DNA from: Christensenellales bacterium
GTDB taxonomy: Bacteria; Bacillota; Clostridia; Christensenellales; CAZKXV01
Assembly (NCBI GenBank): GCA_050952545.1
Contig: JBMNLD010000002.1
Location: 106,889 to 170,888 of the forward strand
Length of the DNA stretch: 64,000 nucleotides
Reading direction: 5' to 3'
Shown here one piece after another: positions 2,654-25,427 of the stretch. Each line of letters begins with the position of its first letter. Positions within the stretch are counted from its first letter, which is position 1. The position numbers and the translations under genes are program-made. The notes under the pieces were generated by a model. The model was not told where the DNA came from, did not search any database, and was given only the letters and a program-made list of their open reading frames with translations.

Positions 2654-2654
2654 T

Positions 2655-3660: not shown

Positions 3661-4538
3661 AATTCGTCGATATACGCTTGAATTGTTTGCCTCGTGCCCC
3701 TGTAAGGACCGGGGTTTTCCATTTTATGGCTGACTGTCGCAGTCGCCCACAAAAGCGAATCTTCCAAAGACCGCGTCAGCCTTTCGCCTATGTAGCTTGC
3801 GAACGTCGTGTCGCCGCGCCCGCTTCTGCCGCTTAGGTTGCGCGCTTTTATGGGGCAGGTCGCAAGCGTTTCGCTGTCGTACGCCAAAACCTCGGTGTTG
3901 TGGGTTATGACAACTTCTTTCGCGCCCCAGCAGTTGAAGACGCGCGCCGCCCTCTCGCGGTCGGTGAACCCCGTCAAAATTTCTGCTTCGGCGGCGTCGG
4001 TTTTGAAATAGGTTATGTAAGGCAGCAGCTCTTTCTTCTGCTCCCAGTCGAAAAATTTCATTTCGGTGTTGTCGCCGCCCGCGTGTCTGAGCATGGCTTG
4101 GACGTCCAACGCTACCGCGCCGCGCTTGGACAGTTCGACGATTAACTCGGCGGAAAAGTCGCCGTAAATCAACCCCGCGAGGTGATAGATTTTGCAGTCG
4201 ACGTCGGGAATGTCGTCGATTGTGAAAGGCTCCGCTTGCGAAATGCAGACGCATCTGCGCTTTTCTTTGTCGGCGGTGAAGTACTTGTTTTGAATGGAAG
4301 TGGATTTAGCCGAAGGAATAAAATAAATATCCTCTTTTGGGATAACAAGTTCTGAAAGGCGCTCTTTGTCGCGCTCGGCGAGTTTTGTCACCGCTCCGAC
4401 GCGGTGCCCGCCCGCGAACGCCGCCGCGCTCGAATATATAACGGCGCCGCCCACTTCGATGATTTGGTGGTCCAAGTAGTCGATATTGTAGTCAAGCGAG
4501 ATATGACCGATTGTCAAAATGTCGTATTGTTTTTTCAT
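3654..4538 (-). CDS. PfkB family carbohydrate kinase
   Basis: GHISLD, VGGAVIY, KTDAAEA and SGRGDTTFA (ribokinase-family anion-hole motif). Confidence 0.9.
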   Translation of the reverse strand: MKKQYDILTIGHISLDYNIDYLDHQIIEVGGAVIYSSAAAFAGGHRVGAVTKLAERDKERLSELVIPKEDIYFIPSAKSTSIQNKYFTADKEKRRCVCISQAEPFTIDDIPDVDCKIYHLAGLIYGDFSAELIVELSKRGAVALDVQAMLRHAGGDNTEMKFFDWEQKKELLPYITYFKTDAAEAEILTGFTDRERAARVFNCWGAKEVVITHNTEVLAYDSETLATCPIKARNLSGRSGRGDTTFASYIGERLTRSLEDSLLWATATVSHKMENPGPYRGTRQTIQAYIDEFY

Positions 4539-6941: not shown

Positions 6942-7283
6942 ATGCATCTTAAAAAGTTAGATAATTATTTGCAATTTTTTGATGATATTAAAGATGATTA
7001 TGTTCAGGTCGAAGAAGCTAAGCTAATACGAAAAGATATGTTAGATATCGATACTGTTAAACTTTCTAACATAAAAAACGATTTGTTATTTTATTTAGAT
7101 AGTTTTGGAGATATTGATAGTGAGTCATACAATGGATATGGTTCATTGCCTTTAATAGGGATTACTTGGAATAAATACTTATTAGTTGGATTGTGTAGAA
7201 GTTATTTTACCAATGAAATATTAATAAAATATGATGGAAAACAGTATAAAAAAATTACTTATAAGCTGTCTTTAAACCATTGA
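6942..7283 (+). pseudogene. C-terminal fragment of a larger hypothetical protein
   Basis: No RBS; the frame stays open upstream into the MFS junction; AT-rich codon usage. Confidence 0.45.
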
Positions 7284-7298
7284 TTTAAACCTTAAAAT

Positions 7299-7368
7299 AC
7301 ACAATAGTTGAAAAATATTACGAAAATATTGTAAAACTATTGTGTTTTTTCTTTTTGTTGTTTATAAT
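7299..7368 (+). promoter_or_regulatory. Sigma70-type promoter overlapped by an 11-bp inverted repeat (putative operator)
   Basis: TTGTGT(7340-45)-N17-TATAAT(7363-68); arms ACACAATAGTT (7299-7309) and AACTATTGTGT (7335-7345). Confidence 0.6.
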
Positions 7369-7397
7369 ATAAGTGAAATCAATGAGAGGTGTAGGAT

Positions 7398-7625
7398 ATG
7401 GAAAACAAAAAAGATAATTTTAAGCGTATATCTGAAAATAGAGTATCAAAGATTTTGACTTTACTTTCTCAATTAACTAATTTAAGTAATTCATCTTTTT
7501 ACGAATATACTGATGAGGACATAGAGAAGATATTTAATGCTATTGATGAAGAAGCTAAGAAATCAAAAGAAATATTGCTGAAGTCAAATGATAAAAAAAG
7601 AAAGAATAAAAGGTTTGAGTTATAG
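7398..7625 (+). CDS. Small conserved helical protein (putative regulator/adaptor)
   Basis: GAGAGG RBS; FKRISENRV..L..L.NLSN...YEY..EDI.KIF pattern that I recall from small genes heading RM/defence-associated operons. Confidence 0.7.
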   Translation: MENKKDNFKRISENRVSKILTLLSQLTNLSNSSFYEYTDEDIEKIFNAIDEEAKKSKEILLKSNDKKRKNKRFEL

Positions 7626-7637
7626 GAGGTAACAAAT

Positions 7638-9593: not shown

Positions 9594-10498
9594 AGAATAA
9601 AATATTTCCATACCCAGTTTTAAATAATAATAAGTTATATTCAAATTTTCCGGATGCTTCATTTGAAATAGTTTATGAAGCTGAAGAAGATGAATTTGCA
9701 TATATCCTAAAAAACATAAAATTCTCAACAGATAGTAAATTAATTAATGACTTGTTTGATAATCAAAAGATAGATATTAAACTAGTGGTTGAATGCTCTG
9801 ATACAGTCTTTAGAAAAGCTTTTAATATCAGTAAAGAGCCAAAGAGTATCCGACTTTTGAAAAATGACTTTACTGAAAAAGTTGATGTTTCTATGTTTGC
9901 AGTTGCAAAGGAAAACTTTAGAATTTCATCAAACGAATTTGATGAAGACTATCGCGACATAGAATTCGAAATTGAAAAGTATGATATTTTATGTGCAAAT
10001 GATGGCTTCAATGTTAGATTCAGACATGATGAAGCAGAGAATAATTTAGTTAAATCAATTTTTTCAATAATTCCAAGCGATAATATTAACGATGGTACAT
10101 TTGAAGTTAATTGTGAGTTAGGAAAAAAGATTACTATTTCTATATCTGACGCTGATTTTAAAAATATGAATATAGTTAATACTGTTCCAACATATAAAGA
10201 AGTAGTATTTAATATGCTATTAGTTCCTGCATTGATTGAAGGTTTGACTTTATGTTTGAAAACTGTCCAAGAAGGAACTGATGATTTAGATGATATTGGA
10301 AATAAATACGTTTGGTTTAGAAGTATATTAATGTCATATAAACGTTTATACGGAAAAGATATTACAATTGATGAATTTAAGAGTTCATCACCTGTTCTTT
10401 TAGCACAACAATTGTTAGGAAAGCCACTAGGCGCAGCTTTACATAAGCTTGTTGTTGAAACAAATAAAATAGACGAAGGAGGAAATGATAATGAGTAA
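9584..10498 (+). CDS. Hypothetical protein (N-terminal FPYPVL motif)
   Basis: 304-aa ORF overlapping its upstream and downstream genes. Confidence 0.75.
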   Translation: MQVKNKIFPYPVLNNNKLYSNFPDASFEIVYEAEEDEFAYILKNIKFSTDSKLINDLFDNQKIDIKLVVECSDTVFRKAFNISKEPKSIRLLKNDFTEKVDVSMFAVAKENFRISSNEFDEDYRDIEFEIEKYDILCANDGFNVRFRHDEAENNLVKSIFSIIPSDNINDGTFEVNCELGKKITISISDADFKNMNIVNTVPTYKEVVFNMLLVPALIEGLTLCLKTVQEGTDDLDDIGNKYVWFRSILMSYKRLYGKDITIDEFKSSSPVLLAQQLLGKPLGAALHKLVVETNKIDEGGNDNE

Positions 10499-10850
10499 AA
10501 TCAACATTAAAATGCTTTCAGAAGATGCATTAGTATATTTGAAAGAAAACGCTGAGAGTATTGCAAAGAAAATTGCAGAAAATGAAGATAATTCTTGGAT
10601 TAAAAATACCATTCCTCAATCTATACCTCTATTTGTTGAAAAGAAATTACAAATTGAAGATTTTGATTTGTTAGATAATCCGGAATCAGCCGACAAGAAT
10701 ATAGATTTTCAAAACTCTGTAAAAATTTATGAGTCGTTAAAAGAACTTCCTAGATATATTTTATGCGACCAAAGATTCTGGCTTTGGCTTCACTTGGATA
10801 AGTTCTACAAAACAGTTAGAAATATGATGAAGATTAGAGGGAAATATTAA
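10491..10850 (+). pseudogene. DUF6339-like protein, C-terminally truncated
   Basis: KMLSEDALVYLKEN...NSVKIYESLK.LP.....DQRFWLWLH resembles the DUF6339 N-terminal half; stops at ~120 aa, shorter than I recall for the family. Confidence 0.55.
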
Positions 10851-11352
10851 GATCTATTAATTGTAATGGTTCAGAAAGAAGAACTGGAAGAGAAGCTATA
10901 TTCTGGGGAATGGATAATAATATTCCTTTTCCGCAGGCAAATGATATGACAAAGATTATAAAACTTGTTATGGCTGATGAATCTGTGATTAATGATAAGG
11001 CAAAAGCCATGGAATTAATCCATGTAAGTACGACTAGACAAGTAGCATATTATTTCTCTGCACTTCAATTTTTAAAGTATCTAAAGCATGATAAGACATT
11101 TACTGATAGAGCAAATAATTTGATGAAAAATGAAGGTAAGATTATCCTAGATATTTATAATCAGTTATTAAATAATGAGATGTTTGGTAATGCTTATAAG
11201 CAATTTAAAGATTCAAAAAAAGTAAATGTTGAAGTCATTAAAATGAAATAAGAAAAAACAAGCCTAATTTAGCGGACTCAACTGTAAATAGAAGAGTATC
11301 AACAATTAAGGCATGGGTTGAATGGATGTATGGCATTGATGGTCTAATGTAG
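10838..11352 (+). pseudogene. C-terminal remnant of a restriction-endonuclease-associated winged-helix protein (DUF7226-like), frameshifted near 11240
   Basis: IPFPQAND...TRQVAYYFSALQFL, then in another frame STVNRRVSTIKAWVEW*; one added A at attaaaatg joins the two frames. Confidence 0.55.
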
Positions 11353-11373
11353 ACTTTATACATCTTATTTTAC

Positions 11374-11508
11374 AGTAAATAATTGTAGTGATTTTATTCT
11401 TAAAATTACATTTAGTGGAAACTAATGGTATAGGTATGCTAAAACCTGTTGTTTAGGTGAAAAAAATAACATTTACAAATTTAAGGTCAAATAACTATAG
11501 AGTTATTG
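11374..11508. repeat. ~135-bp diverged direct repeat, copy A
   Basis: About 111/135 identical to 23742-23875 by manual alignment; identical blocks gtatgctaaaacctgt and aaggtcaaataactatagagt. Confidence 0.85.
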
Positions 11509-11608
11509 TAGGTTCAGTAAATTGATAAAATAACTCTTTTGTTATATAATTATTCCGATAATCTGAAGTACCAGAAAGTTGAGGAAGGGCTCAAAGGAGG
11601 TACTTGCT

Positions 11609-11839
11609 ATGGATTATCGAAAAGCCATATTAGATAAAGAAGCAACAAGTATTAGACTTAGGTCCCTTAGAATCAAAGCTAATCTAACACATGATAGACT
11701 AGCTGCATTACTTCAACTAAACACACCTCGTGTGATTTATGATTGGGAATGTGCAAAGAAGATGCCTAATGTTGAAAACTTGTATAATCTGGCTCTAATA
11801 TTTAATATGAAAATGGAGGATTTACTTGTAACCAAGTAG
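11609..11839 (+). CDS. XRE-family helix-turn-helix regulator
   Basis: LRSLRIKANLTHDRLAALL...VIYDWE..K.MP...NL..LA..F; AGGAGG RBS. Confidence 0.85.
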   Translation: MDYRKAILDKEATSIRLRSLRIKANLTHDRLAALLQLNTPRVIYDWECAKKMPNVENLYNLALIFNMKMEDLLVTK

Positions 11840-11929
11840 ATCCTTCTTTTTATTTTTGAACTATAGTACATTTTGAAATTTGACACTTCTGTTATAATAA
11901 TGACGAAAACTGTAAATATGTTCTATATA

Positions 11930-11959
11930 TTGAAATAAATTTCAATAATATGATATAAT
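11930..11959 (+). promoter_or_regulatory. Sigma70-type promoter with extended -10
   Basis: TTGAAA(11930-35)-N18-TATAAT(11954-59), with TG at 11951-52. Confidence 0.55.
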
Positions 11960-12144
11960 TATAGTTGGATACAAATGCATGTTCTGAAACTGTGGAGTAA
12001 GAACTTTACCTATATGGAATGTTGGAGCGAATCTTATGGTTGGGATATACCATATGAGGAGTAAACCAATAGTTAAAAGCTAAATTTCAAGAGTGGTATT
12101 GCGTGTCTAAACAAAATAACATGTGAAGAGGATGAATGTTATTG

Positions 12145-12180
12145 AAGTGGCGATAGGCTAATACCTACCGTCACTTTTTT
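12145..12180 (+). terminator. Intrinsic terminator immediately upstream of the helicase operon
   Basis: AAGTGGCGATAGG-CTAATA-CCTACCGTCACTT stem followed by a T-run. Confidence 0.7.
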
Positions 12181-12203
12181 GGTTTTAAGGAGGTGTCAAT
12201 AAC

Positions 12204-13106
12204 ATGAAGAAAAAGAGCAAGGTTATAGGCAAGGACTACGAAAAATTAGAGAAAGAAAATCGATGCGACAGGATCGATTATTATGGCTTGATTGCCAAAG
12301 ATGGCAGAATAAAAATTGACACAAAACGTTATAAAAAATTCTTTACTATTCCAGATAGTAAAATTGAAAATAGACACTCCGTTTATTACCTTCCGACTAA
12401 ACAACATAGATCTGAATATCAATGTAATTGGTTTAGAGATCTATTAACAGGTTATAAACAATTATGGTTTAAAGAATATAAAAGCTTCATTGATAGTATT
12501 AAAACTCCAAAGCAAGTAGAAGATGATGCAAGAGTCGCACATTTAGCTGATGGAGTGCTTGATTATGAAGAAGCTAATGAAAAAGCATTTATAGCAGGCA
12601 TTAAAAGAGCAAAAGATTATAAAGTAATTATTAAATCTTTATACGCTCAATTTTTCCATCAACTAATGTCTAGCATAGATGCATTATGCTTAAAGATGCT
12701 AACTGCCTGTGGCTATAAAGAAGAAGATTATACAAAGAAGCAATTTGATATTTATATGCAGGGTTTGCAGGGTAACAATGCAATATCGTTCAGACAATAT
12801 GATAATTACAAACTTTATGATAGAGCATTCACTGTTTGGAACTTTCTAAAGCATAACTCTCTTAGATCATATAAGATCTTGAAACAATGGTATCCTAATA
12901 TGGTTTGGGACCCAGAAGATAGATATCAAAATGGTGAATCTGCACTTTCTGTTGTTAAGCTAGATGAGAAATTCATCTTAGATTGTTTGGATAACTTACA
13001 TTTATTCTTTGATGAATTATGTGCGAGAGCTTTTAATGAGAATGCTGAAGACGCACAATGGGATTATGATGATTACTTCTTGAAGACGTCGTACAAGATC
13101 AAATAG
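12204..13106 (+). CDS. Hypothetical protein, possible divergent HEPN domain
   Basis: AAGGAGGT RBS; helical; WNFLKHNS resembles the NxxKH HEPN variant. Confidence 0.6.
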   Translation: MKKKSKVIGKDYEKLEKENRCDRIDYYGLIAKDGRIKIDTKRYKKFFTIPDSKIENRHSVYYLPTKQHRSEYQCNWFRDLLTGYKQLWFKEYKSFIDSIKTPKQVEDDARVAHLADGVLDYEEANEKAFIAGIKRAKDYKVIIKSLYAQFFHQLMSSIDALCLKMLTACGYKEEDYTKKQFDIYMQGLQGNNAISFRQYDNYKLYDRAFTVWNFLKHNSLRSYKILKQWYPNMVWDPEDRYQNGESALSVVKLDEKFILDCLDNLHLFFDELCARAFNENAEDAQWDYDDYFLKTSYKIK

Positions 13107-13147
13107 ATGTTATTGTCAATCCACTAGATATATAGGAGGACAAAAGA

Positions 13148-16100
13148 ATGGCATATATATTTTTATCTTTTAGTGAACATTTAAATAGAGGAGCAAACTC
13201 AAAAAATGATTTTTATAATTTATCATTAAATGAACAATTTGAATTGCTTCAAAGAAGAATCCCATTGGAAAGACAAGTATCTAATTTTAATACTTTTATT
13301 GAAACATGTTTCCCTACTAACTTTAATAAGAAATATTATATTTCTTGCCCTAATTTCTTAAGAGAGAAACATCAAGTAGCAGAAGACAAACCATCTTTTT
13401 TAAATAATGTAGTTATTCGACCAGAATTAACTTTATCAATGAAAAGAGTTCTACCTGACAATCAAAACATCATCTTAATTGGTGATATTTATGAAGGTGG
13501 AAAATTAAAAATGTTACAGATTAAGGGATTACAATTAATTGATGATTCAATGGAATCTCCATATGATGTAAGAGTGGATGATTATTCGGTTTGTAATTCA
13601 TTTGAACGAGGATATTGGAGTATAAATCATGTTGATTACAATGATACATTTTTTACGCCTAACAACATTAAAACGATTATAGATAATTGCTGGACTGTTG
13701 AACATCCTGAGGAAATTAGAAAAACATATGAAGTTTGGAACAAGTATATTGGATTTAGAAAATACTATCTTCAAGAACAATCAAAACGTAATTTCAAATT
13801 AGATAGAGCTATGTTTGTTGAAGCATATGCTGTAAATAGAAAAGATTATAAAAAGAATGCCTCAATTTATGATGAATATCTTCTTGATGGAAGAGATGAA
13901 TTCAAATGGGGAGATATGATTGTTTTATCTGAAAAGATAGAAGATGCTGAAGAATTTCCACTTATTAGATTGGATATTGAAAGAAATAGAAAAGCATTTA
14001 ATGAAGCAAAAATTACTAAACGTGGAAAATTGGTTAATGAAGAAGAACGTAAAATTCGTTCATTATCTAGTGATAATGTATTTATTACTTCTATTGATCC
14101 TGAAAGCAAATCTCAGCATAAGGATAGAAATGGTAATCAACAACAAGTTACATTCGGTGAATTATTAAATGCTGGATATGCATTAGGCGATAGATTTAAA
14201 ATTGTTTCTTATGATATCGAACCCACTGATCATTTAGAAGAGTTAGATTTAGCATATACAAGAGATATAGATAAATCATATAAAAATATAGATGCTAAGT
14301 ATGAGAAGATTATTAAAGAAGAAGTAAAGCAAGCAGTTAATTTATATGAAAAAGAATTAAATAAACAAGCTAAAGAAAGAATTGATTTTTATAAAAATGA
14401 ATTAGATAGTTCTTTAGAACAAGATGTTTTAGAAAATAAAGATAAAAATATTATTAGTTTAATTGATAAAAAGAAAAAAGAAATTGAAACTAATGTTACA
14501 AAGAATATTAAACAAGATAAAAAAGAAAAAGATAATGAATATGCTTTAAGAATAAAAGCATTAATTGAAGATGAAATATCTAAAATTGATGTTAAGTCAT
14601 ATTATGTTGAAAGAAATTCTAAGTTATTACAAGACAATGCTAAAAGTATTGAAATGGAATTAAAGAGATTATTAACACAATATGAAGCAAAAAAGAATTC
14701 TGAAATCACTAACAAATATAAAGATGATGTTAGAAATGAAAAGATTAAATCAAAAGAAGAACTTGATGCTAAGTTAAAGTTTGATAAAGAAAAAGCTATT
14801 GATGAGGAAACAATTATTAGATTCTCATTATATTTTAGATTAGGAGATCCTAATAATGTTATTTCAGACAAACAAAAGAAGGTCGTAGATTCATGCGAAT
14901 ACATTGTTTATGATAATCGTGCTGAAAAAGCTAAGATTTCAAGACAAGAGGCAGCCTTAGATAATTTCTATTCTGGATATGTTAAGAATCCATATCTTTC
15001 AACATATCTTTTTAACCCAGAAGAATTAGATACAGTTAAAGCAGAACCTAGTGATTGGATATGGTATTTAGAATCTCTTAATGAAAAGCAAAAAGAAGCA
15101 GTTAGAAAGGCAGTTTCAAGTAATGGTATATTCTTACTTCAAGGTCCTCCAGGAACTGGTAAAACACAAGTAATTGCTGAAACAGTAGCTCAGTTAATTA
15201 AAAAAGGTAAAAAGGTATTAATTTCATCTGAAACACATAAAGCAATTGATAATGTATTTGAAAGATTACCTAAAATTGCGGAAATCGTACCTATTAGATT
15301 AATTCCTTCTAATAATGATAAAAAGAAAGAAAACGAATATGATCCAAAATTCCTAGTAGATAATTTCTATTTAAATATTTCTTCTAATATGAAGAAAGCT
15401 GTTAATAGATATAAGAATTTTGAAAAGAACAAAATAGAATTTGCTGAAAACTTTGATAAATTAAAGTTGGCAAAAGCCAAAATAGAAAAATCTCAAAAGG
15501 TTTTAGATAAGGCTAACGAAGAAATCAAAAAGTTTGAAGACAATGCTAAAGACATTAATTCTAAGATATCAGTATTAAATGATAAAAAGGACTTGGTCAG
15601 AATTGATATTGATATCTTAAGAAGAACTAAACGTCATATTGAAAATGATAATTTGAGACCTGATGAAGATGTAAAGGTTGACTTGATTGTTGATGTAAGA
15701 AAGAAACTAGAACCTTTATTTGAAAAAGATGTTTATATCGATGATGATTTAGGTCAATTATTAAAGAATATCAATTCAATTAAAAATGATGAAATAGAAC
15801 GTGAATTAGCAGTTATTAATCCTGAATCCAATAAAACTATTCTTGAAGTTAAGAAAAATGATTTAAAGGCTGAATTAAATAAATATGTTGATGAATTAGG
15901 AGACATTATTGATACTAATAATGAGGAAAAAGTTGAAAGAAATTAAAAATGAATTAAGAAAGGTTTTGAAAGAACTTAAGGCTGAATCAGTTGGCGTATC
16001 TTTAAACGATTTAAAACTTAATAAGATTTTTAATTATTCATACTTAGTTGCAAATATTTCTTTAATTCCAGAAGTTATTAGAACTGTAAAAGATAGAATT

Positions 16101-17657
16101 ATTGAGATTAAATCTTCAACGATAGAAGTTCTAAATAAAGAATTACGTACTATTGAAGATAAACAAGCAGAACTAGATAAAGAAATAGATTCATTAAAGC
16201 AACAAATAAAAGTAATTAATGAAAATATTATTGATATTCAAGAAAGAAATGATGTTAAAGATATTCAAGAAGCCAAATATAAGCTTGAGAATGATTTAAT
16301 AAAATTCTTTAAAGATTTTGAAATTGCTGAACCTTATAAGGATGTAGATGAAGGACTAAAGATTATTAAACGTAAATGGTCTGAGCTTGAAGATGATTTC
16401 CAAGCGAAGGAACAAGAAAATAAAGAAAAAATACCTATGTATGAAAAGATCGCAAATTACATCACTAGTGAAGATGTAATTGAAGAAGATAGAAAGGTAT
16501 TTACTAAAGACTTGTTTGAAAATGCTAATGTATTTGGTATTACATGTACATCTAACGATAGATTCAGCGGAAGAAATGTTGATGCATTATCTGAATATAA
16601 TATCGATGAGATTGATATTAAATCCGTTGGTATTGATGTAGTTATTATCGATGAGGTTTCTAAATCAAGTTTTATAGATTTATTGATACCTATTCTTTAT
16701 GGTAAAACAGTTATCCTAGTTGGAGACCATAGACAATTGCCTCCAATGTATGAATTCTCCAAATTAAGAGATGATGATTTTGAAGGATTAGATGAGACAA
16801 TTATTAATAAAGAAATTAATAAAGAGTTTACTAAATTGTATGAAGAGTGTTTCTTCAAAACTCTATTTGAAAGAATACCAGATAGTTATAAAACTATGTT
16901 AGTTCAACAATATAGATGTCATGAACATATTATGAATGTATTTAACCACTTCTATAAAGGCGAATTAAAACTAGGTTTTGCAGGTCAAAACAATAATAAA
17001 CGTCATAATGTTAAATTACTATCAAATGGTAGAAATATTATCGAACCAGATAAACATATTTATTTTGTTGATTGTAAGCAAAATGAAACGCATGAAGCTG
17101 ATTCAACATCTATGTACAATACTGGTGAAGCTAGAGTTGTAGTTGAATTAATCAGAAAAATGAATACATATTTCAAGTCGCATCCAGAACTTGAAAAGCT
17201 AAGCATTGGTGTTATTTGTACATATGGAGACCAAGCTAGAAGAGTAAAAGAATTACTTAAGAGTGAAAAGGTTAAAACAGATGCATTTAAAACAGATGTT
17301 GAAAAAATGATTGTTTCAACTGTCGATGATTTCCAAGGTGATGAAAGAGATATTATCATTTTATCTACAGTTAGAAATCCTGAAAATCCAAAAAGAAGTG
17401 ATCCTGGATTTATCCTAGCTTATCAAAGAATTAATGTTGCTTTATCTAGAGCAAGAAGAATGCTTATTATGGTAGGTAACAGAAAATATCTTGAAGAAAA
17501 AGGTGTGATTGATTTACCAGATGTCTATGGTCGTGTTGGTAAAGAACAAAGAAACTTCAGAGTTTATGAAGAAATCTTAGCTACTATAGAACGCTATGGT
17601 AAAGTAATCGAAGATATTGATGTATTAGATGATAAGGAGGCGAGAATAAATGGATAA
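13148..17657 (+). CDS. Upf1/DNA2-like SF1 helicase (~1500 aa, long coiled coils), split into ORFs 13148-15946 and 15909-17657 by a +1 frameshift at an A5 run (15927-15931)
   Basis: Motifs QGPPGTGKT and SSETHKAIDN in part 1; IIDEVSK, LVGDHRQLPP, QYRCH, TVDDFQGDERD and RINVALSRAR in part 2; removing one A reads EEKLKEIK. Confidence 0.9.
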
Positions 17658-19782
17658 GTTTAAACTAGAAACTTCTATACAATTTCCATTCTTTAAAATG
17701 AATGAACTTGTTACATATTCTGAAGTTAAAAAGCCTAGTGGTGTTGCTTATATTTTACTAGTTCTAATTAGTGAATCTAAGAATAAAAACGATAGATTAT
17801 CCAAAGTATTAGAAAACTTCGGAATACCTAAATCTCTACATTATATTTTCGCTGATAATGTCCAATACTTAATGGAACAAGGAATATTAGAAGAATTTAA
17901 TTTTTATAAAACTGAATTTGATAATTACCTAATTGGTTCATTTCAATTTACTTCAAAAGGTAAAAAGATATTTGCTGAAGAATCTATACCTACAGGTATT
18001 AATAAAGAATTAAAAGTCCCAGTATTTTATAATATTGCAATGAATGAACTATCATTGAAGATGGATAATGATTTAGATCCAAAACCATTAATGGACTGTG
18101 CTATTACTCCTGAATTTATGGATAGATTTAAGAACGAAAAGAATGTTGAAAATTTCTTAAATCTTCAAAAAGGAAAAGGAATAAGTGTTAAAAAAGAAGA
18201 AATCATAACTAATGTAGAACAATTAGATCAAGAAAATTGGATCGGAAAATATGATTGCGATATGAACATTAATGGCGATGATATTGAAATTAAATTTGAT
18301 GAATTGCTATTACAAAAATTCTTTGATGCTAATTACAATCAAAACATGGTTAATTTAGCTATTTCTTATAAAAACAGATTTAAGTTTAAATCATCTTTTA
18401 AAGATAATCTTAAACTAAGTAATTATGGTTTTGATAGAATTGCAGGAATAATTATTCCAAAAGAGATAGATGATGTTTTAAAACAAAAGAATCAATTATT
18501 ACTTACAAAGGGTAATTATAAAACTTCAAATGGTTATATGATTACTAGTTCGGAGTCTATTTCAAAATATGATGATACGATTGAATTTATTCAAGTAGAT
18601 ATGCACGATTCTGTTTATGCATATATTCCAGGCAATTTTAATTTTAACAATAATCTATTTGGAATTATTACAATTCCTCTTGCTTTAAAGATTAAATTGA
18701 CTGAAGAAGAATTGAAAAATGTCATTAAACCTTATGTAGTATCATTATCTACATATAGTGAAGATAATTTTAAAGAATTAGTTAAGGTCACAAATATCAC
18801 TGATGACTTGAAGCTAGCAAAAGAGATTATTGAAGGTTATGTAAATGAAGATGCTGAAAGTAATATTGTTTTATTAAATGAAATGAAGCCATATGCTATA
18901 TCTAATTCAGGTATATCAAATATTTATAGAGAATTGTTAGAAAAGAATTATAGCAATTATATGGATACCATCACTGAAGATAATCTTGATACAGCACTTA
19001 AGATAACTGCTTCAATTCCTAAGTTCTTAAATATTCCAAATAAGGATGTTTTATCAAGAATATTTAAGAATATAAAAGTTAAAAACGAGTTAGAAACTTA
19101 TGAAACATTAGTAAGTAAAGGCTTTGATAAATCACTAGTTGTTTTATATGTTAATCCAGTAATTGAAGCATTAAAGATAAGAAATTCTGAAGAAAAAAGC
19201 ATAATTGATTTAATTAACTATGATGATGCTTTATCAGAAATGAAGAGAATAACTTCTATTAACGATTACAAGAGTTATTTATATGATGAAGAAAAGATTA
19301 ATCATAATGATTTCAAAACAAACTATAATAAAGCATTTAATCTTCAAAAGAATATTGCTGTATTTAGAAGTGGTAATGAAGGATTATTTGCTAATTATGA
19401 TGGGTTCATGAATTTATTCTCAACTATTAATGATGATATTAATTTAGTTGAAGCTGCACTTAAGAATCCTAATAATTTAAAGCCAGAATTAATTGAAAAG
19501 AAAATAGCTAGTGGTGAATATCAATTTGTATTTGTTAATCTTTCTGCAAAATTAGAAACAATTTTAAAAAACAAATATAAATTAGATGGCAAATTATCTG
19601 ATATGTTAAATGACGCAAGATCTAATGGTATAATTGATAAGAAGGTTATTAGTGATTTGCATGATTTTAGAGATAATAGAAATGCATATGTTCATCCTGA
19701 AGATAGAACATCAAATTATAATGCTGATGATTTAAGAAGATGGTCTAAAGAAATCTTTGATTTGGAGGTGGAAGGAAAATGA
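17650..19782 (+). CDS. 710-aa hypothetical protein with a C-terminal HEPN-like motif
   Basis: Overlaps the helicase stop; C-terminal DLHDFRDNRNAYVHP fits the Rx4H HEPN motif. Confidence 0.7.
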   Translation: MDKFKLETSIQFPFFKMNELVTYSEVKKPSGVAYILLVLISESKNKNDRLSKVLENFGIPKSLHYIFADNVQYLMEQGILEEFNFYKTEFDNYLIGSFQFTSKGKKIFAEESIPTGINKELKVPVFYNIAMNELSLKMDNDLDPKPLMDCAITPEFMDRFKNEKNVENFLNLQKGKGISVKKEEIITNVEQLDQENWIGKYDCDMNINGDDIEIKFDELLLQKFFDANYNQNMVNLAISYKNRFKFKSSFKDNLKLSNYGFDRIAGIIIPKEIDDVLKQKNQLLLTKGNYKTSNGYMITSSESISKYDDTIEFIQVDMHDSVYAYIPGNFNFNNNLFGIITIPLALKIKLTEEELKNVIKPYVVSLSTYSEDNFKELVKVTNITDDLKLAKEIIEGYVNEDAESNIVLLNEMKPYAISNSGISNIYRELLEKNYSNYMDTITEDNLDTALKITASIPKFLNIPNKDVLSRIFKNIKVKNELETYETLVSKGFDKSLVVLYVNPVIEALKIRNSEEKSIIDLINYDDALSEMKRITSINDYKSYLYDEEKINHNDFKTNYNKAFNLQKNIAVFRSGNEGLFANYDGFMNLFSTINDDINLVEAALKNPNNLKPELIEKKIASGEYQFVFVNLSAKLETILKNKYKLDGKLSDMLNDARSNGIIDKKVISDLHDFRDNRNAYVHPEDRTSNYNADDLRRWSKEIFDLEVEGK

Positions 19783-20867
19783 GTCAACAAGTAACCGTTG
19801 ATTATCAAGGTGTATCTATTCAAGTACAAGCTAAATGTGACACAGCTGTTCATTCATTGTGTCAAATAGATAAAGTGCTTGATAGAATACATAATACAGC
19901 AGATAAACTTGAAACTGCTAAAGTAAAAGAGTATGAAGCTTATTTGCAAAAATCCAAGGAAACAATCAAAGAAAAGATTGAAGCGTTTAAGAAGACTCTA
20001 GAAAAATACAAAGAAGCTAGGGCTTATTCAGTTAATAATCATCAACCAGATTATCAACAATTCATTAACTTTACTAATAAGGTTCAAGCTGAATCAGAAG
20101 AATTAATTAGAACAGTTAATGAATTAACTGGTTCTAAACTTGCAGTAATAGATCAGATGATTGATGAAGGCTTATTAAATGCTGGTCAGGAAACAACTCA
20201 AGCTATGTTAGATAAATTGCATGGTGTAGTTTCAATCTCAAGTGACATTTTATCCAAGATAAATAACATTGAAGATGTTTCATTAAGAGAACTAGCATAT
20301 AAAGAAATCCTTAAGAACGATAAACTTAGCTTTGATGAAGTAATCACTAAAGCACAAGATGAATATGATATTCTTTTAGGAAAACAAACAAAAAAGGTTA
20401 TTCAAGAATATAAAGAAGAGCTTACTTCTAAAGGTATTACTACAGAAGAATTAGATAAAGCTAAATCTATTGATGAAGCTAATGCTATTGCTAATGAAGC
20501 AATTACTGATGAAACGGTAAGAAAAGAAACTTTAAAAGTTATTATTAAAGCAATCAAAGATAGAGGATTCATTGTTGATACAAAGAAGAATCTTAAGATT
20601 GATAAAGAAAGAAATATTGTTAAATTAGTTGCATTAAAAGCATCTGGACAAATGGCTGAGTTTGAAATTCAACTTAATGGTAAGTTTATGTACCACTTTG
20701 ATGAATATGAAGGCCATGCATGTAAGAAAGATATAGAACCATTCTTAGAAGATTTAAAGAATATCTACGATATCAATATTCTTCATGAAGAAGTAACGTG
20801 GGAAAATCCAGATAAGATTCAAACTCAAAAATATCAATACATAAACAAAAACAAGGGTACTAATTAG
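19779..20867 (+). CDS. Coiled-coil protein with a C-terminal DUF2997-like domain
   Basis: ATGA overlap with the upstream stop; helical N-terminus; C-terminal FDEYEGHACKKDIEPFLEDL. Confidence 0.6.
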   Translation: MSQQVTVDYQGVSIQVQAKCDTAVHSLCQIDKVLDRIHNTADKLETAKVKEYEAYLQKSKETIKEKIEAFKKTLEKYKEARAYSVNNHQPDYQQFINFTNKVQAESEELIRTVNELTGSKLAVIDQMIDEGLLNAGQETTQAMLDKLHGVVSISSDILSKINNIEDVSLRELAYKEILKNDKLSFDEVITKAQDEYDILLGKQTKKVIQEYKEELTSKGITTEELDKAKSIDEANAIANEAITDETVRKETLKVIIKAIKDRGFIVDTKKNLKIDKERNIVKLVALKASGQMAEFEIQLNGKFMYHFDEYEGHACKKDIEPFLEDLKNIYDINILHEEVTWENPDKIQTQKYQYINKNKGTN

Positions 20868-20878
20868 GAGGTAAACAC

Positions 20879-22696
20879 ATGTCTTTACAAAATAGTTTTA
20901 ATAAAATCAGAAGAAATGCTGGAATTAAAAAATGTGTCATGATTGATGGCAATGTTGGTGACGTTTATCTAAATGAAAAGAATAATATCGTTACATTAAG
21001 AGAATATCTTGAAGCAATGTTCAAGGATATGGATTATCAAGACATTGTTTACTGGGATAGAGTTGAAGGTGCAACTGGTGCAATTGATAAGCTAACTTTA
21101 ACTGATGAAGTTGAAGTAGAAGGTGATGCATACGATTTAGGTGATGATGAAGAAGAAACACCAAAAGCACAACAAGGTTTATTTAAATCACCTGCTGAAA
21201 TTTTAAATGTTGTTTATAAGAATGTAATTGATAAAAAGAAGAAAGTTGCTTTTATTATTAACTGGTCAGAATATCTATTTAGTGTTAATGGGTTAAGTGA
21301 TGATGAAAGACAAAATATTACATTATTAGGGAAAGCATTAAAGGATAGAAAAGTTGATTATTTAAATACTGACTGCAATGAAAGTGTTGTTGTCATTATT
21401 TTAAATAAAGCATCTGGATTACCATTATCTTTCTATCAAGGGAATCCTGAAGTTGAAATTGTAACATTACAAAAACCAGATAGAGAAGAAAGAAAACAAA
21501 TGATTCAAAAAATAGAAGATTCATTTGAAGTAAGATTAAAATCTGGTACTAGTTCATTGCTAGATGCTGAAAATATAGATTGTATTGATATGCTTGAAGA
21601 TTTTACTAATCGTGAGATTATTCAATTATCAAGAATGTCTAGAAAAGAAGATAAGATGACTTTTGATAAGTTGTTCTATTTATTTAAATATGGTGAAAAA
21701 GAAAATCCATGGGAAAAATTAGAACAATCTAGAGTTAAAAACATTAAAAAAGAATTATCTGATAGAGTTATAGGTCAAGAAGAAGCGATTGACAAAATAG
21801 AAAAGACTGTTGTTAAAGCATATATGGGTTTAACAGGCCTTCATAAAACTTCATCAAGATCAATGCCAAAAGGTGTATTCTTCTTTGTTGGTCCTACTGG
21901 TGTAGGTAAAACTGAGCTTTCAAAGGCTTTAGCTAAATTCTTATTTGGTGATGAACAAGCTTGTATTAGATTTGATATGTCTGAATATGCTCAAGAGAAT
22001 AGTGATCAAAAATTAATAGGTGCTGCACCTGGATATGTTGGATATGAAGAAGGTGGCCAATTAACAAATGCTATTAAAGAACACCCATTCTCAGTTGTTC
22101 TGTTTGATGAAATTGAAAAGGCTGCAAAACCTAATCCACGTATTCTAGATATATTCTTACAAATTTTGGAAGATGGTCGCTTAACTGATTCTAAAGGTGA
22201 AACTGTATACTTCAGCGACACAATTATAGTATTCACATCTAACTTAGGTGCTAACCAAGTTCAAGCATCATCTGATAAAGAAGGTGTAGCAAAAGAATTT
22301 ATTAAGATTGTAAAAGATTACTTTGATAATGAATTAAAGAGACCAGAATTATTAGGACGTATCGGATACAATAATATCGTTCCATTTAATTTCATTCAAG
22401 ATAGAGATTTCCAAGTTAAGATTTGTAAGAACAAACTAAAACCAGTTATCAGGGGAATAGAAGAAAAATATAAACTTGAATTGGAATTTGAAAAAGAATT
22501 GGAAGCTATCGAATATATCCTAAAAGCTGTAGATTCATCAAAAGGTGGTCGTGATATTTTAAATGCTATCAATGATAGATTATTAGATCCTCTTGCAATG
22601 TTCTTATTTGAAAATAAAGATGAGTTACGTTCTTTAAAAGGAAGTAGAATTATTACAAAGGTAACTAAAGATGGATTCAGCTTTGACTTCGATTAA
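20879..22696 (+). CDS. ClpB/ClpA-like AAA+ ATPase (single intact NBD2-type module, degenerate N-terminal half)
   Basis: GPTGVGKT, RFDMSEY, LIGAAPGYVGYEEGGQLT and VVLFDEIEKA; no second Walker A. Confidence 0.9.
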   Translation: MSLQNSFNKIRRNAGIKKCVMIDGNVGDVYLNEKNNIVTLREYLEAMFKDMDYQDIVYWDRVEGATGAIDKLTLTDEVEVEGDAYDLGDDEEETPKAQQGLFKSPAEILNVVYKNVIDKKKKVAFIINWSEYLFSVNGLSDDERQNITLLGKALKDRKVDYLNTDCNESVVVIILNKASGLPLSFYQGNPEVEIVTLQKPDREERKQMIQKIEDSFEVRLKSGTSSLLDAENIDCIDMLEDFTNREIIQLSRMSRKEDKMTFDKLFYLFKYGEKENPWEKLEQSRVKNIKKELSDRVIGQEEAIDKIEKTVVKAYMGLTGLHKTSSRSMPKGVFFFVGPTGVGKTELSKALAKFLFGDEQACIRFDMSEYAQENSDQKLIGAAPGYVGYEEGGQLTNAIKEHPFSVVLFDEIEKAAKPNPRILDIFLQILEDGRLTDSKGETVYFSDTIIVFTSNLGANQVQASSDKEGVAKEFIKIVKDYFDNELKRPELLGRIGYNNIVPFNFIQDRDFQVKICKNKLKPVIRGIEEKYKLELEFEKELEAIEYILKAVDSSKGGRDILNAINDRLLDPLAMFLFENKDELRSLKGSRIITKVTKDGFSFDFD

Positions 22697-23225
22697 GTTT
22701 AATGTAGCATATATAAAATTATGCACTAAAACTGAAGGTCCGTATAAGAGATGCTGCATTTGGTTTCAAGGATGTAACATCAATTGCAGAGGATGTTGTA
22801 ATAAGAATTTGCAACCATTAGTTCCAAATCATATAGTTACATTAAAAGAACTTATCGATATTGTTAAAGAAGCTAAAGATAAGTTTGATATAGAAGGTAT
22901 AACTCTCAGTGGTGGAGAGCCTTCTTTACAAACTGGTTTAAAATACTTTAATAATGAGATTCGTAAATTAGGATTAGGAATCATAATGTTTTCAGGAAAA
23001 AGCAAAACTTATCTAGATAAAAGTCTAGTTGAATCTGTTGATTTATTAATTGATGGTCCGTTTATTGAAGAACAACTTGATGACAAGAGAGTATTATTAG
23101 GTTCTAAGAATAAGGAACTATCTTTTATTACTGATAGATATAAAAAAGAAGAAGGATACTTCGACAATCCTATATCTATTGAAGAAGTAACAGCAGAAGA
23201 TTATATCTTCATAAATGGGGACTGA
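22671..23225 (+). CDS. NrdG/PFL-activase-like radical SAM (4Fe-4S) protein
   Basis: WFQGCNINCRGC (CxxxCxxC), GITLSGGEP and DLLIDGPF. Confidence 0.9.
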   Translation: MDSALTSIKFNVAYIKLCTKTEGPYKRCCIWFQGCNINCRGCCNKNLQPLVPNHIVTLKELIDIVKEAKDKFDIEGITLSGGEPSLQTGLKYFNNEIRKLGLGIIMFSGKSKTYLDKSLVESVDLLIDGPFIEEQLDDKRVLLGSKNKELSFITDRYKKEEGYFDNPISIEEVTAEDYIFINGD

Positions 23226-23227
23226 TT

Positions 23228-23728
23228 ATGGATAAAAAAAGAATAGAAAGTGAAATGAGAGAATTAGAAATTAAAATTCATTATCATTTTAATGACATAT
23301 CATGGCTTGCTAAAGCTATGGGTTCTATAAAAATACCTGTTCCAGGTCAAGGAAAGAATGGTTCTGAATATTCTAATGAAGGCTTGGCTACTGTTGGTGA
23401 TACTATATTAAAATCAGTTATTGCTGATAAGTTTTATAGAGAAGGAATAAGAACCAAAGGTGAGATTACAATTAAAAAGAGCGGTATAGAAGACAATGCA
23501 ACAATGCATGATGTAATGATCTACGAAGGTTTAATTGATTATTCTTATAACGATTTACATTTCTTCAAAGATCCAAATATTCCTGACCATGAGCAAGTTG
23601 TGCATAAGGCACATGATCCATATATTGAAGCTATGGTTGGAGCTGTGTATTATGATTCAGGAAATTATGACACAACTAAACGCTGGATTCTAAAGTGGTT
23701 ATTACCTCTTTTAGAGAAGTATAAATAG
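23228..23728 (+). CDS. Ribonuclease III-domain protein lacking a dsRBD (Mini-III-like)
   Basis: NEGLATVGDTIL and YIEAMVGAVYYD; only 166 aa. Confidence 0.8.
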   Translation: MDKKRIESEMRELEIKIHYHFNDISWLAKAMGSIKIPVPGQGKNGSEYSNEGLATVGDTILKSVIADKFYREGIRTKGEITIKKSGIEDNATMHDVMIYEGLIDYSYNDLHFFKDPNIPDHEQVVHKAHDPYIEAMVGAVYYDSGNYDTTKRWILKWLLPLLEKYK

Positions 23729-23741
23729 CACCAATTCTAAT

Positions 23742-23875
23742 AGTAAATAATGTTAGTTATTTGTATCTCAAAATGACATTTAATTGAAAGTAATGGAAAA
23801 TGTATGCTAAAACCTGTCGTTTAAGTGAAAATTTTAATTTAACAAATTGAAGGTCAAATAACTATAGAGTGATTG
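23742..23875. repeat. ~135-bp diverged direct repeat, copy B
   Basis: See copy A; begins 14 bp after the RNase III-like stop codon. Confidence 0.85.
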
Positions 23876-23891
23876 ACACTTAAATAGATAG

Positions 23892-23920
23892 AAAGGTAGG
23901 AGTGATTCTTACCTTTTTTC
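23892..23920 (+). terminator. Intrinsic terminator at the end of the AT-rich operon
   Basis: AAAGGTAGGA-GTGAT-TCTTACCTTT followed by T-runs. Confidence 0.65.
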
Positions 23921-24035
23921 TTTTTACAACATAGCTACTATATAGGTCGTTAATTGAAAAGTATTATCTTAAGCAAATTATATTTACTAGATAAATCTAG
24001 TAAAATGGAAGCAATAATAAAGGCGTGGTGGTAAT

Positions 24036-24095
24036 TTGGATAAGAAAGAATACTTAAGTCGATATCATAATTTAATAGAACGAATTGAAATATAA
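24036..24095 (+). pseudogene. 5' stub of a phage-type gene (DUF1492/ArpU-like), cut at the repeat junction
   Basis: TTG start after GGTGGT; reads MDKKEYLSRYHNLIERIE and then enters the repeat at 24090. Confidence 0.3.
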
Positions 24096-24184
24096 GCTAG
24101 ACAGCGACAAGCAAAAGGGAGACATAGCAAAAATACGGACAAAAAGTCCGTATTTGCTATGCGACTATAAGCGCAGTCGTTGTC
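24090..24184 (-). repeat. tRNA-linked multi-hairpin element, tRNA-proximal partial copy
   Basis: 24090-24186 is identical to 2559-2655; abuts the CCA of tRNA-Val. Confidence 0.9.
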
Positions 24185-24260
24185 TGGTGGGCAATAAGGG
24201 ACTCGAACCCCTGACTTCCTCCATGTGACGGAGGCACTCTACCAACTGAGTCAATTGCCC
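24185..24260 (-). tRNA. tRNA-Val(CAC)
   Basis: 76-nt cloverleaf GGGCAATT...CCACCA; anticodon arm CCTCC-GT CAC AT-GGAGG; GTTCGA T-loop. Confidence 0.95.
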
Positions 24261-24264
24261 TCTC

Positions 24265-24340
24265 TGGTGGAGATGAGGGGGATCGAACCCCTTACCTCTT
24301 GAATGCCATTCAAGCGCTCTACCAACTGAGCTACACCCCC
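24265..24340 (-). tRNA. tRNA-Ala(GGC)
   Basis: 76-nt cloverleaf GGGGGTGT...CCACCA; anticodon arm CTTGA-AT GGC AT-TCAAG; G3:U70. Confidence 0.97.
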
Positions 24341-24460: not shown

Positions 24461-24736
24461 ATGGAGACTATTTATGTGCCGAGTATTACGGCATTGGTTT
24501 ATTTAATGATTATGATGTATAAAGAGCTAGTCGGCAAATCCGAAAAGTTTCGCAAAATAATCCCGATGCTTGCGGGAATAATGGGTATGGGGCTGTCGGT
24601 GCTCGCTTTTTATACCGCGCCTAACCTGTTGCCCGCAAAGGATATTATTAACGCGCTGTTGATAGGCTGCGTAAGCGGTCTTGCCGCAACGGGCGCGAAT
24701 CAGATATTCAAGCAGTTAAATAACGGCAAGAAATAA
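24461..24736 (+). CDS. Phage holin family-like small membrane protein
   Basis: Three TM helices; C-terminal GCVSGLAATGANQIFKQ. Confidence 0.7.
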   Translation: METIYVPSITALVYLMIMMYKELVGKSEKFRKIIPMLAGIMGMGLSVLAFYTAPNLLPAKDIINALLIGCVSGLAATGANQIFKQLNNGKK

Positions 24737-24917
24737 TTAATCCAGCCCAAAAGGGCCGCTTAATTATAAACGATAAAGAAAGAGCTAAAAAGAGCCATAA
24801 AAATATACTGTCAATTAGTATACTATGGCAGCTATAACGGATATTTATTCCGCCGTCTTCGACAGGCGGCGGAATTATTATTTGACATTTTAATTAAGAT
24901 CGTGATTAAATTAATTT

Positions 24918-25427
24918 ATGAGAGTTTTTGTCGCGATAAATTTCAGCGCCGACGTAAAAGACGAGATATACGCCGTACTTAAAAGGCTTAGGGAGCAATG
25001 CGTAAAAGGCAGGTTCACAAGCTATGACAATCTGCATTTAACGCTTGCGTTTATCGGCGAAGCGGACGGCAATGAAATTCAAGATATTATCGCCGGACTC
25101 AATATGATACGCGCAAGGCCTTTTACTTTTACGATAAGCGGCTCGGGTAAATTTCACCGCGCGAGCGGCGACATTTACTGGCTCGGCATAAACAGCGCGG
25201 AACTTATTGCATTAAGACGGCAGGTGTACGCTCTGCTGAAAGATTACAATATCGATTCAAAGTTCACCGCCCACATCACTCTGGGAAGAGATGTAAGGGT
25301 AACAGACGATATCACCGTTTATTACGACGATATAACGGTCGAGGTTACAAGCGTTGAATTAATGAAATCCGAGCGAATAAGCGATAAGCTCGTATATACG
25401 ACGCTTTACACTAAGACCTTGCAATAA
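24918..25427 (+). CDS. thpR: RNA 2',3'-cyclic phosphodiesterase (2H family)
   Basis: MRVFVAI, two HxT motifs (HLTL, HITL) and LMKSE. Confidence 0.9.
   Translation: MRVFVAINFSADVKDEIYAVLKRLREQCVKGRFTSYDNLHLTLAFIGEADGNEIQDIIAGLNMIRARPFTFTISGSGKFHRASGDIYWLGINSAELIALRRQVYALLKDYNIDSKFTAHITLGRDVRVTDDITVYYDDITVEVTSVELMKSERISDKLVYTTLYTKTLQ

Follow-up and report, generated by a model that had tools for sequence, protein, structure and literature searches.

Do genes for a helicase, a HEPN protein, a coiled-coil protein, an AAA+ ATPase, and a radical S-adenosylmethionine (SAM) enzyme that lie in one tight row belong to a single immune system, or are they chance neighbors in a defense island? This question arises from a locus in a 64,000-nucleotide (nt) stretch of a Christensenellales genome (assembly GCA_050952545.1, contig JBMNLD010000002.1, positions 106,889 to 170,888; hereafter, the window), where a first-pass annotation had proposed an undescribed system of seven genes. 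Our computational analysis reduced this unit to a core of five: an MkoA-like superfamily 1 (SF1) helicase (gene A), a HEPN protein (B), a coiled-coil protein (C), a ClpB-D2-like AAA+ ATPase (D), and an NrdG-like radical SAM enzyme (E). The RNase III-like gene behind them proved optional, and an XRE regulator gene and a gene for a protein of 300 amino acids (aa) formed a separate, portable module in front. We consider it probable that the five core genes constitute one horizontally mobile and unnamed system against invaders, i.e., phages or plasmids, that acts through an RNase effector.

Constant order of the five core genes

The core genes are co-oriented on the + strand, with overlaps of 4 to 26 nt. 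The junctions first read for the seven co-oriented genes were exact to the nucleotide: B starts at 17650, before A stops at 17657; C starts at 19779, before the stop of B at 19782; E starts at 22671 within D, which stops at 22696; and directly behind the stop of E at 23225, the RNase III-like gene begins at 23228. Relatives were gathered by exact-protein look-ups and by a scan of one genome per species, and were compared by tblastn. In more than 35 loci from Firmicutes, Mollicutes, and proteobacterial plasmids, the five core genes were never found apart, and their order A-B-C-D-E stayed constant even where B was down to ~20% identity; all complete loci among those numbered L002 to L038 contained the five genes in identical order. 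The expectation that the genes would be conserved together elsewhere was thus borne out for these five, which recurred in the same order in defense islands and on mobile elements, with gut bacteria among the hosts.

The individual components diverged at very different rates. In locus L037, identity to the window was 67% for D, 51% for E, 43% for the C-terminal part of A, 32% for C, 31% for the N-terminal part of A, and 20% for B. Gene B is accordingly the fastest-evolving component, while D is nearly frozen and the most conserved. Judged from these alignments, the diversification of B against a constant D would fit, as expected, a specificity or effector subunit under conflict.

These data bear on the reading that two or three small systems were stacked by chance, namely, a Mokosh-like helicase with its nuclease, a Dodola-like coiled-coil protein with a ClpB-like ATPase, and a radical SAM enzyme with an RNase III. 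Such stacking would explain why PADLOC matches the cassette piecemeal (MkoA on one gene and DolB/PDC-M37B on another) and why the RNase III and 300-aa genes come and go, and defense islands are known to pile up unrelated systems, such as the candidate PDC-M33 next door in the window. Yet it is hard to reconcile with a core that stays together down to 20% identity of B, with overlapping start and stop codons, with the absence of MkoB, DolA, and PDC-M37A, and with a DolB match that covers the AAA core only. We therefore regard chance stacking as very improbable.

The same architecture, with a PIN domain in place of HEPN, was carried by proteobacterial plasmids (10 of 72,556), with hosts among Polaromonas, Moellerella, Acinetobacter, Photobacterium, and Leisingera. 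In the three of these ten plasmids that were inspected, the gene order under PGAP names was helicase, “PIN domain-containing protein,” hypothetical protein (the homologue of C), “AAA family ATPase,” and “4Fe-4S single cluster domain-containing protein,” and these generic names were the only ones that the cassette genes had received. On the Acinetobacter sp. WCHA55 plasmid (L055), three further genes directly 3′ of the cassette (10718-12700) encode proteins of 173 aa (“AAA family ATPase”), 328 aa (“radical SAM protein”), and 162 aa (hypothetical); they may represent a second radical-SAM unit.

In a Malacoplasma metagenome-assembled genome (MAG; L017, 5482-15657), the five core genes contain 10 in-frame TGA codons (5, 2, 1, 1, and 1) and stay open only under a code in which TGA specifies Trp. 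From these codons, we conclude that the cassette is resident and recoded in Malacoplasma. The radical SAM gene of this locus has no TGG and a single TGA, although the family has an invariant Trp. Elsewhere, the cassette was sporadic: an orthologue of D was present in 2 of the 151 genomes from the window's own order, 5,426 E. coli genomes yielded no homologue of the D-E genes (blastn, at the DNA level), and 50,697 phage records yielded no match to the cassette.

Table 1. Positions in the window of the cassette genes, the accessory modules, and the surrounding features.
Feature	Positions	Strand	Basis and remarks
Gene A, Upf1-like SF1B helicase of MkoA type, ~1,500 aa	13148-17657	+	AAA_11/AAA_12
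Gene B, 710 aa, C-terminal HEPN RNase domain (predicted)	17650-19782	+	DUF4145
Gene C, 362 aa, coiled-coil	19779-20867	+	alignments, AlphaFold2 (AF2)
Gene D, 605 aa, single-ring ClpB/ClpC-D2-like AAA+ unfoldase	20879-22696	+	AAA_2
Gene E, 184 aa, NrdG/PflA-like radical SAM enzyme	22671-23225	+	Fer4_12/Radical_SAM; overlaps D by 26 nt
RNase III-like accessory, optional, 166 aa, lacking a double-stranded RNA-binding domain	23228-23728	+	PF00636
XRE-type helix-turn-helix (HTH) regulator	11579-11839	+	Pfam HTH_3 3.2e-6; likely start ATG 11610, 76 aa
Sigma-70-like promoter, strong	11930-11959	+	TTGAAA-18-TATAAT with TG; 11/12 positions; drives leader and operon
Structured leader RNA, ~220 nt	11961-12182	+	RNAalifold, covariation
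300-aa accessory protein, fold unassigned	12204-13106	+	always with leader RNA
Candidate defense system PDC-M33, neighbor outside the cassette	7638-10850	+	PADLOC; A 651 aa, B 304 aa, C 121 aa
Left direct repeat, ~135-150 bp, diverged	11374-11525	.	brackets the XRE-to-RNase III module
Right direct repeat	23742-23892	.	followed by operon terminator at 23890-23918
tRNA-Val(CAC)	24185-24260	-	3′ end adjoins the island

Predicted activities of the core proteins

The helicase, gene A, matched the PADLOC MkoA model (PDLC03920) in both its C-terminal half (2e-65) and its N-terminal half (2.4e-33). Its closest family in NCBIfam was IGHMBP2, and its closest structures in the Protein Data Bank (PDB) were IGHMBP2, Sen1, DNA2, and Upf1. 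In addition, the protein has a long coiled-coil insert and, at its N-terminus, 630 aa with no assigned fold. The present assembly splits the gene into two open reading frames (ORFs; 13148-15946 and 15909-17657), while the helicase of the relatives is a single ORF of 1,483 to 1,554 aa. The break comes down to one extra A at position 15936, where the window reads GTTGAAAGAAATT and two relatives read GTTGAAGAAATT. This A was missing from Logan contigs of four independent metagenome runs (X1, X2, X5, and X10), one of which is otherwise identical to the window over 6.7 kb; the same run also lacks 2 nt near 13082, an indel that makes the first gene 300 aa long here compared to 309 to 312 aa in relatives. 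Because near-identical contigs and relatives are unbroken in this comparison of assembled contigs, we take the breaks to be an assembly error or a private mutation and not a feature of the system. The indels at 13082 and 15936 suggest that this three-contig genome contains further indel errors elsewhere.

In gene B, a beta-rich N-terminal part, resembling in places a winged HTH, is followed by a helical repeat and a C-terminal HEPN domain. The domain matched DUF4145 (PF13643) at 4.1e-5, with 24.0 bits against a cut-off of 23.1, and carries an RNAYVH motif whose R677, N678, and H682 did not vary among 17 sequences with identities as low as 19%. The R-x4-6-H motif that defines membership of the HEPN superfamily thus lies in a C-terminal helical bundle, modeled by AF2 as helices between residues 577 and 706 (mean predicted local distance difference test score, pLDDT, of the B model, 89.5). 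Searching the model with Foldseek against PDB and BFVD returned nothing at E < 1e-3, the matches consisting of helical-repeat noise. Homologues of B amounted to 222 matches at 90% clustering, or 146 clusters at 50% identity. In the position-2 protein of the proteobacterial plasmids, a C-terminal PIN_4 domain occupies the place of HEPN, and the effector domain therefore appears to be swappable. A common N-terminal scaffold of the HEPN and PIN versions was considered and not adopted, the hhalign comparison being suggestive only (E = 0.0028, 11% probability).

Gene C combines a variable helical or coiled-coil N-terminal part with a conserved alpha/beta C-terminal domain of ~100 aa, in which a YxGxxC loop and an NPD motif are invariant; the loop is unchanged from Firmicutes to Proteobacteria. 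No Pfam, PADLOC, or PDB sequence match was obtained for C, and its AF2 model (pLDDT 77) returned nothing at E < 1e-3 from Foldseek searches of PDB and BFVD, with weak matches to the spermine synthase N-domain and to TBP-like folds at E = 0.009. We also considered the C-domain as a homologue of DUF2997, in which the GxxGxxC register recurs, and rejected this assignment as the scores were not significant (hhalign E = 0.3 and 0.016; Pfam 0.23 in one of seven sequences).

Gene D matched AAA_2 (PF07724) at 2.6e-51 (174 bits) and the D2 rings of ClpE, ClpC, and ClpB at 1e-58 to 1e-53, and its Walker A (GPTGVGKT), Walker B, and GYVG pore loop motifs are invariant. It is not a full ClpB, i.e., a protein with two AAA rings, an M-domain, and ClpN: only D2 matches, and the equivalog models gave 255 bits against a 1232-bit cut-off. 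On inspection of the sequence between sensor-1 and RPELLGR, we found no [ILV]G[FL] tripeptide for docking to ClpP. In front of the ring, D carries a conserved N-domain of 280 aa, for which neither an hhalign comparison of the two halves nor a PDB profile search supported an origin as a dead first AAA ring.

Gene E matched Fer4_12 at 8.4e-23 and PFL-AE at 6e-5. Invariant are E22-G23-P24 with R27 (EGPxxR), C35, C39, and C42 (CX3CX2C), and G81 to P84 (GGEP). The protein stayed below the curated cut-offs for NrdG (TIGR02491; 2.3e-17, 63.4 against 126.1 bits) and for TIGR02493 (52.4 against 231.8 bits), and a better NrdG is encoded elsewhere in the host genome. The first-pass annotation had described the catalytic motifs as intact; the motifs are indeed present, with the exception that two of the four canonical acidic residues appear not to be conserved in the RNase III-like protein.

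With these assignments at hand, a housekeeping function can be weighed. Housekeeping relatives exist for Upf1-like helicases, RNase III, and Clp ATPases alike, as would suit a stress pathway for RNA surveillance and protein quality, and a radical SAM enzyme beside small proteins often matures peptides, as in the biosynthesis of ribosomally synthesized and post-translationally modified peptides. Several findings speak against such roles: the cassette is found in 2 of 151 related genomes, has 28% guanine-cytosine (GC) content against 45% in the host, has been transferred across phyla, lacks a SPASM domain, a precursor peptide, and an exporter, and resides in a host that has its own ClpB-type and NrdG-type genes. 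We consider either role hardly credible.

Under the anti-invader reading, A, as a Mokosh-type and Upf1-like helicase, would engage foreign RNA or single-stranded nucleic acid, and the C-terminal nuclease of B (HEPN here, PIN in Proteobacteria) would cut RNA, halting the infection or the growth of the cell. C, D, and E would act together as a fixed control or engine module, where D, as a hexameric unfoldase, may remodel or thread a protein target, the simplest candidates being C and the A-B complex, and E, translationally coupled to D, may act on this target or on a small molecule by radical chemistry. The first proposal of a sensor, a remodeller, and an RNase effector is a plausible logic for the cassette, as far as domain content can tell. 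A more far-reaching version, in which the C-terminal YxGxxC domain of C, the motor D, and E are a new type of immune engine whose ATP-driven unfoldase presents C or an invader protein to the radical SAM enzyme for modification, cross-linking, or cleavage, and whose operon is gated by a new class of leader RNA, we put forward only tentatively, as a possibility we would not bet on.

Accessory modules and the surrounding island

Upstream of the core, the window contains the XRE regulator that had been noted as adjacent, followed by a promoter, a structured leader RNA, and the gene for the 300-aa protein. The XRE relatives measure 76 to 78 aa, and the gene has a terminator of its own at 11815-11846. 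The -10 box of the promoter was kept in a 10-locus alignment, and across these 10 loci, the leader was more conserved than the flanking proteins. RNAalifold folded the leader into 49 pairs: a helix of the 5′ and 3′ parts closes a junction with four helices inside it, and is followed by a hairpin and an intrinsic terminator, whose end lies ~12 nt upstream of the ribosome-binding site and ~21 nt upstream of the first codon of the 300-aa gene. In 13 sequences, pairing was preserved in 99.2% of cells compared to 36 to 49% in slid controls, and compensatory changes occurred in 21 of the 49 pairs compared to 2 to 8 in the controls, the terminator stem being among the covarying elements; as the 13 sequences form only three or four lineages, these cell counts overstate the number of independent events. 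The leader had no match in Rfam 15 (E ≤ 0.1). A covariance model found it in every locus with XRE and the 300-aa gene and in no other locus. Taken together, the comparative alignments provide good support for the leader as an unclassified structured RNA that is newly described here. The first-pass annotation had noticed this RNA, listing it separately and not placing it in the system.

The order of an aptamer-like structured domain and an intrinsic terminator upstream of a gene is the layout of an attenuator. Two other readings of the leader were tried and rejected. As a widespread riboswitch, it would have been expected more broadly, and 400 genomes of the phylum yielded only terminator-like partial matches; as a leader peptide, encoded by a 29-codon ORF, it is ruled out by the loss of the ATG in four loci. 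Metatranscriptome contigs of related strains covered XRE, the leader, and the 300-aa gene, with low-depth pieces over the remainder of the operon. The leader contig of one run had ~4× the depth of the downstream contig, and in another run, a contig read through the terminator. Both observations fit attenuation, as weak evidence. The 5′ module would probably keep the operon silent, through attenuation of transcription, until it receives a signal. The XRE repressor, the leader with its terminator, and the 300-aa protein would be add-ons of this clade, as would the RNase III-like protein at the 3′ end.

The 300-aa protein belongs to a family of 155 proteins with an invariant NFxKHN motif, R135, and W286, and had no match in Pfam, NCBIfam, or PDB, even by profile. 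Reading NFxKHN as a HEPN motif found no support, as no conserved Arg lies at the required spacing. The 5′ region of the cassette varies between clades, with XRE and the 300-aa gene in one, a 175-aa HTH-coiled-coil protein in another, and unrelated genes in others. Conversely, in loci L049 (7423-15718) and L050, the XRE-RNA-300-aa module stands in front of another cassette. The L049 cassette encodes proteins of 117 and 151 aa, a classical AAA ATPase (533 aa), proteins of 615 and 258 aa, a 67-aa DUF2997 protein, a 190-aa Fer4_12 radical SAM enzyme, and a 277-aa protein; the radical SAM enzyme is 29% identical to E and its gene adjoins the DUF2997 gene. From its place before an unrelated cassette, we conclude that the front module is portable and that the pairing of an AAA+ protein with a small radical SAM enzyme recurs. 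The composition of L049 further hints that an AAA+ protein, a GxxC protein, and a small radical SAM enzyme could make up a recurring triad.

At the 3′ end, the RNase III-like protein matched PF00636 marginally (27.6 bits against a cut-off of 27) and contained no other domain. Of the four catalytic acidic positions of RNase III (E41, D45, D114, and E117 in E. coli numbering), those that align, in a by-eye mapping, to E41 and D114 hold A54 and H129; D58 and E134 are invariant. The gene followed E in 8 of ~20 complete loci from the genome scan, as well as in the near-identical L029-L032. In L003, a 151-aa mini-HEPN protein (RNHWAH) fills the slot, and in most of the more distant loci, the slot is empty. 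HEPN, PIN, mini-HEPN, and RNase III are all RNase families. The L003 locus also encodes, just upstream of XRE (1450-3864), an 804-aa protein in which a MatE transporter domain is joined to an RNase III-like domain with 40% identity to the cassette's accessory RNase III.

The cassette lies in an island of 28% GC content (25 to 32% across 7,000-24,100, against ~45% in the flanks and the genome) beside tRNA-Val, which together with tRNA-Ala spans 24185-24340. A 25-nt direct copy of the tRNA-Val 3′ end (24185-24209) with one mismatch occurs at 2481-2505, which identifies the island as tRNA-anchored and upholds the earlier description of the setting. The att-like borders at 2481-2505 and 24185-24209 delimit 21.7 kb, composed of a part with host-like GC content (2.5-7 kb) and an AT-rich part with defense cargo, and every large ORF of the AT-rich part is on the + strand. 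On the host side of the tRNAs (24461-25427), we noted an ORF of 91 aa that is phage holin-like (Hol44 type) and a 169-aa LigT 2′-5′ RNA ligase/phosphoesterase. What had been read as restriction-modification-like remnants upstream turned out to be the candidate defense system PDC-M33, with three coupled genes scoring 2.6e-132 (PDC-M33A), 1.4e-52 (M33B), and 3.2e-18 (M33C). PDC-M33 A and B are full length, and C is truncated, covering positions 2 to 110 of a 247-position profile; because of this truncation, PDC-M33 is probably inactive here.

Defense genes also neighbor the cassette elsewhere: Thoeris ThsA/ThsB and PDC-S45 in L029, a SMEK_N NTPase in L030, Z1/HATPase_c_3/DUF4420 in L003, AbiL-like and AbiO/Nhi-like genes in L037, an Eco57I-type methylase with GHKL and HNH in L052, and ThsA_Macro in L054. 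Its carriers contain large serine recombinases (L002, L004, and L029-32) or are conjugative plasmids (MOBH, next to ArdA). In the window, the two repeats that bracket the XRE-to-RNase III module share 82% and 75% identity (repeat search), and the same repeat pair (3703-3889 and 16093-16223; ~135 bp, ~82% identity) flanks the cassette of L006. These repeats in the window and in L006 suggest a site where cassettes may be exchanged by recombination.

This mobility could equally be expected of a weapon or maintenance device that serves the mobile element and not the host, e.g., by exclusion or post-segregational killing. The serine recombinases, the MOBH plasmids beside ArdA, the tRNA-anchored island, and the bracketing ~135-bp repeats are all in line with such a device, and the promoter-RNA-terminator-protein layout at the front resembles a type III toxin-antitoxin locus. 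The leader, however, contains no tandem repeats (none in 11300-12300 by TRF), and the phage records yielded no match. A device of this kind and host defense look alike in the present data; we judge the former to be unlikely and retain an anti-invader defense as the preferred reading.

Weight of the evidence and comparison with known systems

Several points weigh against the anti-invader reading. The defense label relies on guilt by association; the RNase activity of B and the binding of RNA, as opposed to DNA, by A are predictions from sequence; and the roles given to C, D, and E are guesswork. The N-terminal part of B had no fold match by Foldseek, and the N-domain of D matched neither the AAA half of the protein (hhalign) nor any PDB entry. 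In none of the loci was a glycyl-radical enzyme domain found in or beside the cassette, and the YxGxxC loop of C is no known motif of such enzymes; moreover, the cassette occurs in the strict aerobes Acinetobacter and Polaromonas, which makes a glycyl radical less likely. The helicase is broken in this assembly, though probably by error, and some MAG assignments (Cytophagales, Muribaculaceae, and Spirochaetales) may be binning errors. Lastly, the evidence for expression is weak, as it consists of the contig word depth of related strains, where DNA carry-over is possible.

If the defense function is confirmed, the cassette would be a multi-phylum system whose most conserved parts are an unfoldase and an activase-like enzyme. 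To our knowledge, neither a protein unfoldase nor a glycyl-radical-activase-like enzyme has a known role in prokaryotic immunity, and the cassette could therefore point to radical chemistry directed at proteins as a means of immunity. With exchangeable RNase effectors (HEPN and PIN), it would also widen the theme of Mokosh-type helicases, for which a parallel to the eukaryotic piRNA pathway has been drawn. The leader, which seems to control two or more distinct conflict operons, may provide a handle on how toxic systems are silenced and switched. At ~10 kb, the cassette is compact, it is present on plasmids of cultivable Proteobacteria, and clear point mutants suggest themselves.

None of the cassette proteins scored above an NCBIfam cut-off (June 2026), neither PADLOC 2.0 nor NCBIfam has a model that represents B, C, or the full length of D, and the full-text literature that we searched held no description of the cassette; the single paper in which all the sought features occurred together deals with different systems. 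PADLOC matches were limited to MkoA and partial PDC-M37B/DolB, in agreement with the initial view that no complete named system is present: the cassette is not Mokosh because MkoB is lacking, not Dodola because DolA is lacking, and not PDC-M37 because M37A is lacking.

The likeness to Mokosh type I is the closest at the front of the cassette. Gene A matches MkoA (PDLC03920/03921) over the helicase core, including the inserted region, and both systems join a large RNA-type SF1 helicase to a nuclease effector in a defense-island setting. Unlike Mokosh, the cassette has no MkoB or PLD family (none among nine proteins compared with PADLOC and Pfam), carries HEPN or PIN on a 710- to 820-aa protein with an unrelated N-terminal part, and includes the obligatory C, D, and E, which have no counterpart in Mokosh; the N-terminal 380 aa of A also lie outside the MkoA models. 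Dodola and PDC-M37 share with the cassette a single-ring ClpB-D2-like ATPase that follows a protein with no assigned function. However, C has no match to DolA, DUF6414, or PDC-M37A, and D, which has its own N-domain and is always coupled to the radical SAM gene, matched DolB (4.4e-21) over residues 272-458 of 605 only and PDC-M37B (1.1e-33) in part, with the D2 rings of ClpB, ClpC, and ClpE scoring far higher.

Gene E resembles NrdG and PflA (TIGR02491 and TIGR02493; PDB 3C8F, 3CB8, and 8FO0) in its small size, its Fer4_12 domain, and its CX3CX2C and GGEP motifs, with EGPxxR similar to DGPGxR; it differs by its scores below the curated cut-offs, by a cassette that offers no glycyl-radical enzyme, and by its occurrence in strictly aerobic hosts. 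With pVip, it has in common a radical SAM enzyme in a defense context and a weak match (1.6e-6) over the cluster-binding region, but E is much shorter, the match reflects the shared radical SAM core, there is no nucleotide kinase partner, and the closest families are activases. The cassette is thus neither a viperin system nor an NrdDG pair. The leader, in turn, follows the plan of attenuators, riboswitches, and type III toxin-antitoxin loci (ToxIN), where a promoter, a structured RNA, and a terminator precede the first gene by a few nucleotides; it differs from attenuators and riboswitches in having no Rfam family or known ligand, and from ToxIN in its nonrepetitive sequence and in a 300-aa protein that gives no sign of being an RNase. 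Overall, we place the cassette with the helicase-nuclease type of defense system, and see a substantial chance that both the C-D-E half and the leader RNA represent something new in type.

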